A stretch of 64,000 bases of DNA from Eledone cirrhosa (lineage: Eukaryota): positions 216,690,001 to 216,754,000 of the forward strand of contig OZ024743.1 in assembly GCA_964016885.1 (NCBI GenBank), written 5' to 3'. Below are positions 695 through 5,445 of this stretch, piece after piece (positions within the stretch are counted from its first letter, which is position 1; every line of letters begins with the position of its first letter). The notes under the pieces are model-generated. The model worked only from the letters and a program-made list of their open reading frames with translations. It searched no databases and was not told the origin of the DNA. Both the position numbers and the translations under genes were made by a program.

Positions 695-1012
695 CGGGCG
701 CACCGAAAACGATAAATGGAAAAAATGAAACGAAATTTCATTTCTCACTCTTAGTACGGCTGTTACTTAAATATAAGTATGTATACGTACATACATATAT
801 GTATACAGACGTACAGTAGTATGTATACATGCACACATATATATATGTACGTATGGATTTACCGAACATTTATTATAATGTTCGGTTTGTTTGTAAACAA
901 ACATCCCGAATTAAGTCGTACAGTGTTTAGCAACCATCGTTGCCCTTTTGTTCAGCACTGACAAAGGAACGATGCACTAGTTTCAAGCTTATTAGCTATG
1001 GTCAGCACCGTT
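695..1012 (-). mobile_element. Retrozyme-like family F partial copy with mutated HHR (969-1011)
   Basis: Homologous to 1427-1833 and 4521-5445; HHR core reads CTGACCA and the cleavage triplet reads GTG. Confidence 0.8.
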
Positions 1013-1076
1013 TGTATATATATGATGTATGTAGATACATACTACTATACGTCTGTATACATATATATATATATGT

Positions 1077-1425
1077 GAAAGGTAAACAGAAATAACAACA
1101 CAATCGGTACAGTATATGGAAGGTATATATTAGGTTAATGCTTGATATAGCAGGTAGAGGGTCTTAACGTTTTGGACGCTAGTCCTCCATTAGAAGAAAG
1201 AATGAGAAATAAAATAGATTCAGGCGACGGGCGGATTGGAATTGGAAAAAATTTGAAAAAAGTTTTTAGATGAACATAACAGGTCCATTCATGTTGACTT
1301 CTCTTTATGTATATATATATATATATATATATATATATATATATATATATATATATATATGTATATATATATATATATATACATAAAGAGAAGTCAACAT
1401 GAATGGACCTGTTATTTTTATCTAA
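1077..1425 (-). mobile_element. pLTR-like element with decayed minimal HHR (1162-1197) and a short inverted copy (1381-1425) across a (TA)n run
   Basis: Minus strand TCTT-CTAATGG-A-GGAC tagc GTCC-AAAA-CGTT-AAGA; 1281-1310 is inverted at 1381-1410. Confidence 0.6.
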
Positions 1426-1426
1426 A

Positions 1427-1833
1427 AGCTCACTGGATATGCAAATTAGACTGCTCAGCCGTTAATAAGCATAAGGAAAGTATATACTTTCAGACGTTCA
1501 ACCATCTGGCAGGAAGGTATACGATGCTGACGATAGTTAATAAGCTTGAAACTAGTACATCGTTCCTCTGTCAGTGTTGTACAAAAAGGTGACGTGGTTG
1601 CCTAAACACTGTACGGCGTAATTCGGGCTCTTTGTTTGTTTACAAACATACCAAGCACTATAATGAATGTTCGGTAAACCGATACGTGCATATGTATATG
1701 TGTGCATGTATGTATATATATACATACTACTGCACGTCTGTATACATATATGTATGTACGTATACATACATACTTACATTTAAGTAACTGCCTCACTAAG
1801 AGTGAGAAATGAAATTTCGTTTCATTCTCTTCC
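1427..1833 (+). mobile_element. Retrozyme-like family F near-monomer
   Basis: Reverse complement of the 425-bp unit at 4521-4945; contains ATGCAAAT at 1439-1446 and an intact HHR. Confidence 0.85.
1521..1563 (+). ncRNA. Minimal type I hammerhead ribozyme, family F (intact)
   Basis: ACGATG-CTGACGA-T-AGTT aata AGCT-T-GAA-ACTAGT-A-CATCGT: 6-bp stem I, palindromic stem III, GUA site. Confidence 0.85.
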
Positions 1834-1904
1834 ATATATATATATATATATATATATATATATATATATATATATATATATATATATATATATATATATA
1901 TATA

Positions 1905-3447
1905 TATTGTTATACTTGGGGAGGGTCATATTTGTGTAATATTGCCAGAATTAATAACAGAACACACTCATTGTTTGGCTGGTTTTCGCTTCTCGCTGTC
2001 TTTTATATCGGTAATATAACTTACTCGGTCCTCAATGTTGCCATTGACTGACCGACGGTCAAAAATAGTACAGATACAATATAGACACAGACACATATAT
2101 ATAGTTTATCATAAATCTTTCGTTGCACATATGCAACATCGTCAGTGGTGTTATATTTTCCTCCTGTTGTGTTGTATGTCTACGCCATTTTTATTCAGTC
2201 TGTCTATATATTTATTTATTTATTTGCTTGTTTGTTTATTTTATTTCGTCTTCTTTGCGCATGCGTTTGCGTGTGTGTATAGTGTTATGTTTGCTGTGTG
2301 ATGGGTGACTAGTGTGTGTTTATGTGCTTGTTCTTATTGTGCTTGTGTATGTATGTATTTCTTTATTTATCTTATTTGATTTACTTATTTATACTTCTCT
2401 TAGGTCAGTGTTGTTTGTTTGGGTGTTGTTGTTATTCCATTCATTCTTTCTGTTTAGCTTTGGTCTTCTAATTTCTATTTCACTGGCCTCTCTGATTTGC
2501 CTATCTGCTGGGTCATTTCTATGTTTAGATATTATTCTAATTTCTATGTTGTCTATGTTACCGTCATGTTGTTGTCTAGCATGTTCGTATAGTACTGACC
2601 CGTTTTTTCCTCCTTTTAGTTCCCCCCCAGTGTTGGTCTATCCTTTCACCTATGCTACGAGCTGTCTCACCTATGTATGTTGTTGTCATGTTTCTGCAAG
2701 TATCCTCTGTACATCTTATGCTATAGACTACGTTTCTAGTTTTACAGTTTATCCGGGGGTTCACCTTACATATGATACATTTCCTATTGGTACAGTGGGT
2801 TTTCTTAAAAGAGTAGGTTTTGCAGATCAGGGATTTTATGGTGGTTCCTGGCTTTTCTACCACCTTTATTTTTAAGTGGGTCTTTCTAAGGGCCTTTCTA
2901 CACTGGTTAGCTAATTTCCCTCCAGGGGTGGCGTCCACAAACATGACACTCTGGTATCTCTGGTTGTCGTACCATGAGGTGGCTTTCCCTATCTTATGTC
3001 TAGCCCTATCTAAGCTATTCCATGATTTGCTCCTGTATAATGGGCAAATTCCTTTCCTGTCCAGTTCTATGAGGGTCTTATACTTTTCCATGGCTCCTTC
3101 GTATACTCTGACTCTGTCTCTTTGGTTGTAGCCAGAGAACATCATGCGGTTGATGAAGTGTTGGATGTGTCTTTCCATTTCTGTTGGGTCGCACATGCGG
3201 GACACATTCTTCATCACTCGTACCAAATCTGCGATCAGAATATTAAACTTAGCACAACATTGAGGACCGAGTAAGTTAGATTACCGATATAAAAGACAGC
3301 GAGAAGCGAAAACCAACCAAACAGTGAGTGTGTTCTGTTATTAATTCTGGCAATATTACACAAATATGACGCTCCCTAAGTATAACAATATTTGTTTCGA
3401 CACACGATTTCATATAAAAAACCTCGCAAAACTAATTCATCGCCGCT
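1905..3447 (-). mobile_element. 5'-truncated Penelope-like retroelement (family C) with inverted pLTR at its 5' end, inserted in (TA)n
   Basis: GIY-YIG ORF on minus strand; ~1906-2040 is inverted at ~3255-3390; both ends abut (TA)n. Confidence 0.9.
2389..3245 (-). pseudogene. PLE RT thumb, Cys linker and GIY-YIG endonuclease with one +1 frameshift in a G run (~2622-2628)
   Basis: NVVYSIRC...YIGETARSIGERIDQH; after the shift it continues SVLYEHARQQH...RQIREASEI...LNRKNEW. Confidence 0.9.
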
Positions 3448-3497
3448 ATATATATATATATATATATATATATATATATATATATATATATATATAT

Positions 3498-4012
3498 AAG
3501 AGAAAACACAGTTAAAGATTAAGAGAAGGATTTTATCCAGTTATTTAAGACCGTTTCATTGGTAAGTGCAAACTTATATTACTATACTGCAAATAGCAGC
3601 CACTCAAATATAATTGTTGTTCACAGTCCAAATTTTCAGAATAGTAAGTAAGTTACTCTTGAAATAATTCTTAATATATATTAAGAATTATAAATATATT
3701 AAGAATTATTTCAAGAGTAACTTACTCTCTATTTTGAAAATTTGGACTGTGACAACAATTATATTTGAGGGGCTGCTATTTGCAGTATAGCAATATAAGG
3801 TTGTACTTACCAATGAAACGGTCGAAAATATCTGGATAAAATCCTTCTCTTAATGCTTACCGGTGTTTTCTCTTTTATACTTTATACTCCAAGATTGAAC
3901 TGAATTCTTACAAACTTGTGGAGTTACCCCTAACCGTACGCTGAAACCATCCATGAAACTGACTTTCTAACCAAGAACTGGATCACAATAAGCAATTTTT
4001 TGCTTCTCTAAC
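3498..4012. mobile_element. ORF-less foldback of two head-to-head pLTRs of PLE family B, each with an HHR motif (3542-3643 minus, 3730-3830 plus)
   Basis: Arms match 58955-59273 and 60962-61094; flanked by (TA)n. Confidence 0.9.
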
Positions 4013-4520
4013 TATATATATATTTTAATAATATATATATATATATAAATATATATATATATATATATATATATATATATATATATATAAATATATATAT
4101 ATATATATATATATATATATATATATATATATATATATATATATATATATATATATATATATATATATATATATATAGTTCTAATAACTGTGTATTTATA
4201 AGTGGTTATTTCAATCAATAACTAGATTATGGTTGTTATGGATGACGCTGAAATCTTAACATTTACATTTGCTTGTAACTCCTTTCTTATACGTCAGATA
4301 CCTCAATATCATGCTCTCAGACACGAGAAGATTGTTTGATTTCCTAGGAGCGGCAGTTATGGTGACAATACTAAGATTCCACTTCAAATATAGCATTCGA
4401 TGATATTTAATGTCGGTAGTGAAATTAGACCATTGTAGCAGAGCGCATGAATAATATGATGTTGAACCTAAATATATTTACAAGAAATAAGAACAAATAG
4501 AGTTATAACAACCTCTTATT

Positions 4521-5445
4521 ATATAAGTATGTATACGTACATACATATATGTATAAAGACGTACAGTACTATGTATATACATACATACATGCACACATAT
4601 ATATGTATGTACCTATGGGTTTACCGAACATTTATTATAATGTTCGGTTTGTTTGTAAACGAACAGCCCGAATTAAGCCGTACAGTGTTCGGCAACCATC
4701 GTTGCCCTTTTGTTCAACACTGACAAAGGAACCATGAACTAGTTTCTAGCTTATTAGCTGTCATCAGCACCGTATACCTTCCTGTCAGTCCATTGAATGT
4801 TTGAAAGTATATACTTTCCTTATGCATATTAACGGCTGAGCAGCCTAATTTGCATATCAAGTGAGTTAGTCGGACGGGCGTACCGAAAAGGATAAATGGA
4901 AAAAATGAAATTTCATTTCTCACTCTTATTACGGCTGATACTTAAATATAAGTATGTATACGTACATACATGTATGTATACAGGCGTACAGTAGTATGTA
5001 TATACATACATACATGCATAAATATATATATATATATGTACGTATGGGTTTACCGAACATTTATTATAATGTTCGGTTTGTTTGTAAACAAATAACCCGA
5101 ATTAAGCCGTACAGTGTTCGGCAACCATCGTTGCCCTTTTGTTCAACAATGACCGCTAATAAGCTAGAAACTAGTTCATCGTTACTTTGTCAGTGTTGAA
5201 CAAAAGAGCAACGATGGTTGCCGAACACTGTACGGCCTAATTCGGGCTGTTTGTTTCCAAACAAACCGAACATTATAATAAATGTTCTGTAAACCTATAC
5301 GTACATATATATATGTGTGTATGTATGTATGTATATACATACTAATGTACGTCTGTATACATATATGTATGTACGTATGCATACTTATATTTAAGTTCAG
5401 GCGTACTAAGTGTGAGAAATGAAATTTCATTTTTTCCATTTATTC
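4521..5445. mobile_element. Family F: ~1.5 tandem 425-bp units plus an inverted partial copy (5149-5445)
   Basis: ATATAAGTATGTATACG at 4521 and 4946; the inversion junction at ~5149 falls inside the HHR. Confidence 0.9.
4731..4773 (-). ncRNA. Minimal type I hammerhead ribozyme, family F
   Basis: ACGGTG-CTGATGA-C-AGCT aata AGCT-A-GAA-ACTAGT-T-CATGGT. Confidence 0.8.

Follow-up and report, generated by a model that had tools for sequence, protein, structure and literature searches.

The window analysed here, 64,000 nucleotides of Eledone cirrhosa DNA (GenBank assembly GCA_964016885.1, contig OZ024743.1, positions 216,690,001 to 216,754,000 of the forward strand), is repeat-rich animal DNA that contains four copies (c1 to c4) of family F, a 425-bp unit with a hammerhead ribozyme motif that probably belongs to the non-LTR retrozymes (LTR, long terminal repeat) and is probably copied by the machinery of Penelope-like elements (PLEs). 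The copies lie, within a few bases, where the original prediction had placed them and in both orientations, and its list proved incomplete, having missed a short unit fragment and a diverged relative (Table 1). Units are numbered on the hammerhead strand, with position 1 at window 4945, position 425 at window 4521 and the predicted cut after 209, and the strand given for family F copies is the one that reads the hammerhead. The copies are 86-93% identical to the monomer of c3, whose repeat period is 425-429, and a profile search finds no further family copy beyond low-complexity matches. The unit has a GC content of 36%, contains microsatellite-like DNA and holds no protein-coding frame, its longest ATG-initiated open reading frame (ORF) being 88 aa. 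Its RNA folds with a z-score of -5.3 as a linear molecule (0 of 100 shuffles are as stable) and of -7.0 as a circle, with an energy of -119.5 kcal/mol in sense and of -113.7 kcal/mol in antisense, i.e. the antisense strand is nearly as stable. Of the hairpins described earlier, that of ACCGAACATT and AATGTTCGGT is present; the 18-mer of the second, as it had been written, is by eye a composite of two copies.

Table 1. Positions of family F copies, their elements and related features in the 64-kb window (RT, reverse transcriptase)
Feature	Position	Strand	Description
Copy c1	695-1011	-	From unit 173 to 71 in the following round; about 0.75 unit
Hammerhead of c1	969-1011	-	Core CUGACCA (G8 to C), GUG triplet; predicted dead
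Unit fragment	1014-1076	+	Short, low-complexity; inverted relative to c1
Copy c2	1429-1833	+	Unit 81 to about 50; terminates in (AT)n; second subfamily
Octamer ATGCAAAT in c2	1439-1446	+	Candidate promoter element
Hammerhead of c2	1521-1563	+	Stem I 6/6 pairs, CUGACGA, U.U at stem II base, GAAA, CUAG loop, GUA
Penelope-like fragment	1904-3391	-	RT end and GIY-YIG-like ORF 2576-3280, inverted ends, hammerhead-like motif at 2145; outside family F
Copy c3	4521-5153	-	From unit 222 to 425 in the following round; 1.48 units in head-to-tail order, one hammerhead
Hairpin ACCGAACATT / AATGTTCGGT	4623-4648	not assigned	
Hammerhead of c3	4731-4773	-	Core intact, GUU triplet, G.G mismatch in stem I, C.A at stem II base
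Identical block	4840-4856	-	17 nt identical in the 64% relative, with octamer ATGCAAAT (4848-4855)
Palindromic hairpin	4903-4918	not assigned	Exact 16-nt core; dominant genomic 3' end at 4908/4909
Copy c4	5149-5446	+	Unit 182 to about 57; inverted 5' partner of c3; start inside the hammerhead core
Diverged relative	32260-32942	-	466-bp unit, 1.47 units, units 98% alike; inserted in (TA)n
Hammerhead of the relative	32534-32605	-	Matches Rfam RF02275 (Hammerhead_HH9) over its full length; 37.7 bits (gathering 52), E 3.9e-8

The hammerhead of family F is of type I, with a 6-bp helix I that extends past an internal loop, a CUGANGA core, a helix II loop of UAAUAA or UAACAA followed by GAAA, a single A-U pair capped by palindromic CUAG, and GUH. 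As had been stated, the motif is intact in c2, where the cut is predicted after 1557, mutated in c1, and truncated in c4, which lacks the 5' part of the core; to call that of c3 intact was slightly generous in view of its triplet and mismatches. The stem I mismatch is private to c3, in which the cut is predicted between 4737 and 4736 and helix I reaches from about 4716 to 4790. A strict hammerhead descriptor hits five sites in the window, three of them in family F and the relative, against a mean of 0.015 and a maximum of 1 in 200 block-shuffled windows. Moreover, in an alignment of five rows 87% of the cells are paired, and 6 of the 13 pairs, compared with 0-1 in six slid controls, are changed on both sides, every time between F and the relative. 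The expected conservation of the ribozyme is therefore borne out by a core that is kept while the stems covary and by a descriptor signal far above chance. With the covariance model, the top five matches are its own training sequences and the other three reach E 0.11-0.75. In cofolding, two CUAG strands form a 6-bp duplex, and a helix III of this kind has been reported active in dimers (PMC4209133). PLE hammerheads are described as minimal; their helix II is longer and preceded by an unpaired base. The family F motif is unlike this form, which by eye fits the motif at 2145 in the neighbouring PLE.

The diverged relative is 64% identical to family F over 265 of 417 positions aligned along the whole unit, with the same layout and the same head-to-tail junction, and its monomer folds with -149.5 kcal/mol. 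The match of its hammerhead to the HH9 model covers the whole model, including the helix I internal loop, at a score under the gathering threshold, at which Rfam has 0 matches in the window. The relative is younger; its hammerhead is cleaner, having G-C at stem II and a stem I of 7 bp, and its form of the end hairpin is longer. For a cleavage test it is a better candidate than the family F copies.

Of 17 sequencing runs listed, none an RNA run, which is no evidence for or against expression, and ten with shares of 0.19 or less, of which X5 alone was used, four supply copies outside the window, namely X1 (organism A, possibly the sample of the window itself), X4 (organism B), X5 (organism C) and X15, which consists of raw restriction-site-associated DNA (RAD) reads with the same species label as X1 from another study. 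Family matches amount to 10,109 contigs in X1, 5,407 in X4, 68 in X5 and 74,317 reads in X15; the family is high-copy and present in two organisms besides organism A. Contig depths are not taken as copy numbers, and their dips follow the private changes of c3. Positions 4990-5043 were masked in read mapping, so that "go-back" joints at the reference ends would not have been visible. Majority bases in X1 and X15 restore the stem I pair missing in c3, and their triplet is GUA. Positions 4865-4909, through which the 3' end continues into the following unit, are bridged with at least 31 letters on each side by 4 of the 24 listed pieces (records 7 and 8 of X1, 14 and 15 of X4), which differ from the c3 reference at 14-39 positions; no listed read or contig piece spans the whole unit. 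Since the junction is bridged in pieces of both X1 and X4, the ORF-less head-to-tail closure is a property of the family.

The ends of the copies bear on the route of insertion. In X15, 25,541 reads (10,629 + 14,912) have loose ends before 4908/4909, at unit positions 37-38 just past the tip of the palindromic hairpin; they make up 74% of the depth at 4915-4929, and 4% of that depth is left at 4885-4899. Because the AT-rich flanks of these reads agree only to 0.33-0.34, the ends come from many loci. A further 6,085 reads stop in (AT)n at the equivalent of 4946 (listed at 4952 owing to a 4-base insertion), where X5 has 2 contigs and which is the same position as the c3 end at 4521; the two classes of 3' ends thus lie 37-38 nt apart. 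In X4, 67 contigs are clipped at 4902/4903, and their consensus continues for about 15 bases before it becomes AT-rich, near the c2 and c4 ends. Within the window, the five 3' ends fall in a 71-nt arc of the circular unit (p ~0.004, or 0.02 when the relative is left out), those of c2 and the relative at the same homologous position, and the 5' ends in a 197-nt arc (p 0.23); these arc tests are post hoc, c3 and c4 are not independent, and three end positions were placed by eye. X15 read ends at 4850, 4847 and 4671 and a depth drop near the cut site (4725-4733) were set aside, the former as likely read-length effects of RAD anchoring and the latter as a likely effect of that anchoring. The claim that start points differ between copies therefore holds for the 5' ends and fails for the 3' ends, and its use as a sign of a circular template is not supported, as 5' scatter is expected of any 5'-truncated retrotransposition and the 3' ends cluster. 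Fixed ends on both sides or terminal inverted repeats as in a DNA transposon were not found either: the 5' ends are variable, the unit has no terminal inverted repeats, and each inverted arm is a copy in its own right, the outer ends of the two being unequal. AT-rich or (TA)n targets are seen for c2, the relative and the loose-end consensus lines; the flanks of c1, c3 and c4 are not (TA)n.

The structure of the copies also constrains their template. Three of the four continue past the predicted cut site on its 5' side, and both c3 and the relative are longer than one unit; a linear monomer released by cutting is thus ruled out as template. These two elements start downstream of the upstream cut position, by 13 and about 80 nt, and neither reaches a second hammerhead, which fits an RNA that begins at one cut and contains a second, uncut hammerhead and also a circle with fall-off, two cases not being decisive. 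A circle and an uncut tandem transcript, which explains the copies equally well, are about equally probable as templates. Copies c3 and c4 are joined 5' to 5' with a 5-nt overlap at 5149-5153 that is self-complementary in RNA. They are likely one compound insertion, because three minority hammerhead bases are common to both, despite differences at 16 of 194 columns; the two c3 units differ from each other at 10 of 194. The reported occurrence in both orientations is upheld as an observation and read as the tandem and inverted structure of a PLE insertion. A single insertion is unlikely for c1 and c2, which differ at 24 of 194 columns and have 2 adjacent bases in common, c2 matching a separate subfamily; the fragment at 1014-1076 is faintly suggestive of a 5'-inverted partner of c1. 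Eight flank bases of c3 (4513-4520) match the unit 15 nt further on, with the private base of c3, and may belong to c3, whose end would then be unit position 22 after a 15-nt gap, or represent a target paired with the RNA during priming.

Taken together, the small ORF-less unit, its head-to-tail closure, its GC content, its strong fold and its conserved type I hammerhead sustain the proposal of a retrozyme candidate. Metazoan non-LTR retrozymes have units of 150-450 bp with GC below 50%, no ORF, a type I hammerhead, tandem arrangement and strong self-pairing (Cervera and de la Pena 2020, PMC7229834), and family F resembles them in all these respects; it is a probable member of the class and has every sequence-level feature tested, with cleavage predicted and circles possible. 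Its helix III of one pair with a palindromic tetraloop recalls the axolotl HHR_Amex1 and its U.U at the stem II base HHR_Amex2, which has U.U at the G10.1-C11.1 site, cleaves, and does so better as a dimer; the nearest mollusc case in that source is a mussel unit of 350-390 bp (PMC7229834). For metazoan retrozymes circular RNA and cleavage have been shown; for family F they are putative. Most of its copies do not exceed one unit, their 3' ends are fixed and they have inverted partners, features not described for the retrozymes in the available part of PMC7229834.

In the manner of its insertion, family F resembles PLEs. These are described as inserting in partial tandems with 5' truncation, to which an inverted 5' copy and a tail of 30-40 bp are often added (Craig et al. 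2021, PMC8557442), and family F shows partial tandems, 5' truncation, an inverted 5' partner (c3/c4) and, as counterpart of fixed internal 3' ends with such a tail, two end classes 37-38 nt apart. As this anatomy matches each point, target-primed copying of the PLE type is the likely route; PLE fragments also adjoin the copies in the window. A close parallel is the Poseidon element PAc of Anolis carolinensis, with two adjacent internal RT starts near a stem-loop, a 30-40 bp tail that is the span between them, AT-rich targets, and hammerhead RNA that in vitro serves as template mainly in its uncut form (Frangieh et al. 2024, PMC11167929); PAc is autonomous and starts in an AC-rich stem-loop inside its ORF, whereas family F has no ORF and an AU-rich hairpin. 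Non-autonomous Chlamys elements such as MRC1 likewise show head-to-tail multicopy insertions, inverted 5'-truncated partners and microsatellite targets; canonical hammerheads, however, are missing from Chlamys and Naiad elements, whose non-autonomous members are similar to their partner at the 3' end (PMC8557442); no such partner was found for F. A dependence of retrozymes on PLEs was proposed in 2020, and a case for it from homology followed in 2026: Li, Clavereau and Pollet (2026, bioRxiv 10.64898/2026.07.22.740005) reach the same conclusion of PLE dependence, with dispersed monomers and PLEs in the same genome, mostly in vertebrates, from co-occurrence and homology to pseudo-LTRs (pLTRs). 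The enzyme that moves animal retrozymes has so far been argued from these two grounds, whereas family F, without any pLTR homology found, points to PLE machinery from its insertion sites, since it combines a canonical retrozyme hammerhead with PLE insertion marks and two end classes a tail length apart. We therefore hold with good confidence, on sequence evidence, that family F is a non-LTR retrozyme copied into AT-rich DNA by a Penelope-like RT and endonuclease, likely from fixed internal points of the RNA, among which the palindromic hairpin with its ends at 4908/4909 is a likely start site of reverse transcription. Literature searches for octopus or cephalopod hammerheads or retrozymes and for retrozyme insertion ends returned, by title and abstract, no paper on a family of this kind; cephalopod examples may stand in the supplementary material of PMC7229834 or of the preprint, and most subscription journals and the repeat databases lay outside the search.

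Several observations weigh against this conclusion. The end counts stem from a single RAD library, anchored at restriction sites and skewed to the c2-like subfamily, the loose-end results cover 24 of 957 rows, and the dominant 4908/4909 site is not where any of the five copies in the window stops. No target-site duplication was found at the copies, where the longest shared words are 3-5 nt; at the relative it is unreadable, because this element sits in (TA)n. Metazoan non-LTR retrozymes, where they show such duplications, have them longer than 4 bp. As to the hammerhead, all six double changes come from the single comparison of F with the relative, and relatedness inflates such counts; the G10.1-C11.1 pair usual in hammerheads is absent in F (U.U or C.A), with four of the five rows unpaired there; and Rfam detects no hammerhead in c2 at E up to 10 and one in c3 at E 0.74 only. 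Eight of nine predicted Xenopus retrozyme dimers did not cleave in vitro, according to the preprint by Li et al. Furthermore, no locus in the window has two intact hammerheads in tandem, c3 and the relative having one each and that of c4 being inverted and cut, and the local copies are not classed as active retrozyme loci, since the rule of Li et al. needs two. Finally, no sequence link of F to any PLE in the window was found, none being shared with five neighbouring segments, and a loose end in X1 behind 4788 (10 contigs, agreement 0.97), which exits the unit upstream of the hammerhead into shared sequence absent from the window, may mark a subfamily or a link to an autonomous partner.

This loose end would also suit the improbable alternative that the unit is the pLTR of an autonomous PLE. 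The copies would then be ordinary 5'-truncated ends, and a local duplication at the DNA level would have produced the head-to-tail form. The PLE insertion pattern is present in full, and Li et al. relate retrozymes to pLTRs and propose such an origin. On the other side stand an ORF-less junction common to the 64% relative and to another organism, a hammerhead with a 6-bp helix I and internal loop in place of the minimal PLE form, and the absence of a PLE ORF next to any copy: tblastn matches to PLEs occur in the window only at 2446-3310, and the ORF with RT and GIY-YIG domains of an autonomous PLE is absent from the family F unit. Copy comparisons also reveal no LTR layout in family F, no search for a primer-binding site or polypurine tract having been made.

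Two further accounts were weighed. Reverse transcription of a circular RNA by any RT from random points, giving freely permuted copies, would account for the three copies that reach 5' of the cut site and for the elements exceeding one unit; the clustering of 3' ends in both window and reads, and the fact that both longer-than-unit copies stop short of a second hammerhead, make it very unlikely. The idea of a satellite or a repeat like a miniature inverted-repeat transposable element (MITE), spread at the DNA level with a hammerhead that is a relic or a chance match, could draw on the inverted arrangements, the microsatellite-like DNA in the unit and the poor Rfam scores of F; it is hardly credible given that the arms are separate copies of unequal extent lacking terminal inverted repeats, that 5' truncation with fixed 3' ends is polar, and that the ribozyme core is retained while its stems covary, with a descriptor far above chance.

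For a non-LTR retrozyme moved by PLE enzymes, a cycle can be outlined. Transcription of a tandem locus would cross the unit boundary and may start at the octamer block, and two hammerheads may pair via their palindromic CUAG loops and cut as a dimer, possibly yielding unit-length RNA and circles. The PLE protein would bind near the AAAUGAAA/UUUCAUUU hairpin and nick AT-rich DNA, and cDNA would be primed at unit positions 37-38, 425 or about 50-71. Copying would proceed back through an uncut or re-ligated hammerhead, sometimes over more than one unit, and then end in fall-off or in a strand switch at a short self-complementary patch that produces an inverted partner. Octamers are part of small nuclear RNA (snRNA) promoters. 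Given that a 17-nt identical run has p ~0.07 at 64% identity, the octamer block is a lead only. Newt satellite 2, a hammerhead tandem repeat with an internal promoter of the snRNA type (Coats et al. 1994, as cited in PMC2220036), is comparable, with the difference that the block of family F is a candidate promoter only. That this is a cephalopod family with its own snRNA-type promoter, hammerhead-processed RNA circles and a hairpin for an internal start of a Penelope-like RT is rather doubtful in full. If true, the promoter and the RT-start hairpin would close the two gaps in the retrozyme cycle of animals, as a promoter and a partner-recognition motif were described as not seen in a 2020 review (PMC7761336); hairpin and block can both be tested directly, and the family is high-copy and occurs in at least two organisms. 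Should the ordinary reading alone be right, a known class is extended to a likely cephalopod host. The element is of an ordinary class, with useful insertion-end evidence.

Besides family F, the window contains other mobile elements. The Penelope-like fragment between c2 and c3 is 5'-truncated, lies between (AT)n runs and has a zinc-finger-like linker ahead of its GIY-YIG-like motif; we take it to be a Neptune-like PLE, and its end recurs at 54032-54304 and 35759-35876. Among 8 matches of its ORF the best is a protein of Octopus vulgaris with 60% identity, which makes an octopus the likely host without fixing the species; the ORF itself has no Pfam match; RVT_1 and GIY-YIG matches among its relatives are weak, in 2 of 4 proteins and both below the cut-off. 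By eye, ORFs 34182-34649 and 59923-60552 resemble GIY-YIG endonuclease ends of other PLEs, without a convincing Pfam match. Further hammerhead-like motifs, mostly of the minimal PLE type, lie at 15493, 18469, 33231, 35298, 38442 and 42020, those at 33231 and 35298 forming an inverted pair. Long interspersed element fragments occur at 62323-63729, with an endonuclease domain (PF14529, E 2.5e-10), and at 31452-31931, without a Pfam match. MicroRNA-family matches at 1680-1790 are due to a TA/TG hairpin and lie far under their thresholds. A metagenome scan for the octamer-plus-hammerhead pattern gave 0 matches; the core pattern alone matched at 12 loci, none with more than 3 of 6 stem I pairs and none like F, and their best covariance-model score of E 0.54 marks them as chance. 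One contig reached through such a chance match, L012, carries a 435-bp palindrome at 462-896. Palindromic inserts are also found in the window at 232-694, which directly adjoins the c1 3' end, at 1261-1430, which adjoins the c2 5' end, and at 3493-3879, 28743-29563 and 36046-37266; they are probably further inverted insertions of the PLE type or inverted target duplications. Lastly, a repeat of about 190 bp like a short interspersed element (SINE), presumably resembling octopus SINEs and without a tRNA found by ARAGORN, lies at 5675-5866 and in about ten other places, in tandem at 18874-19373.

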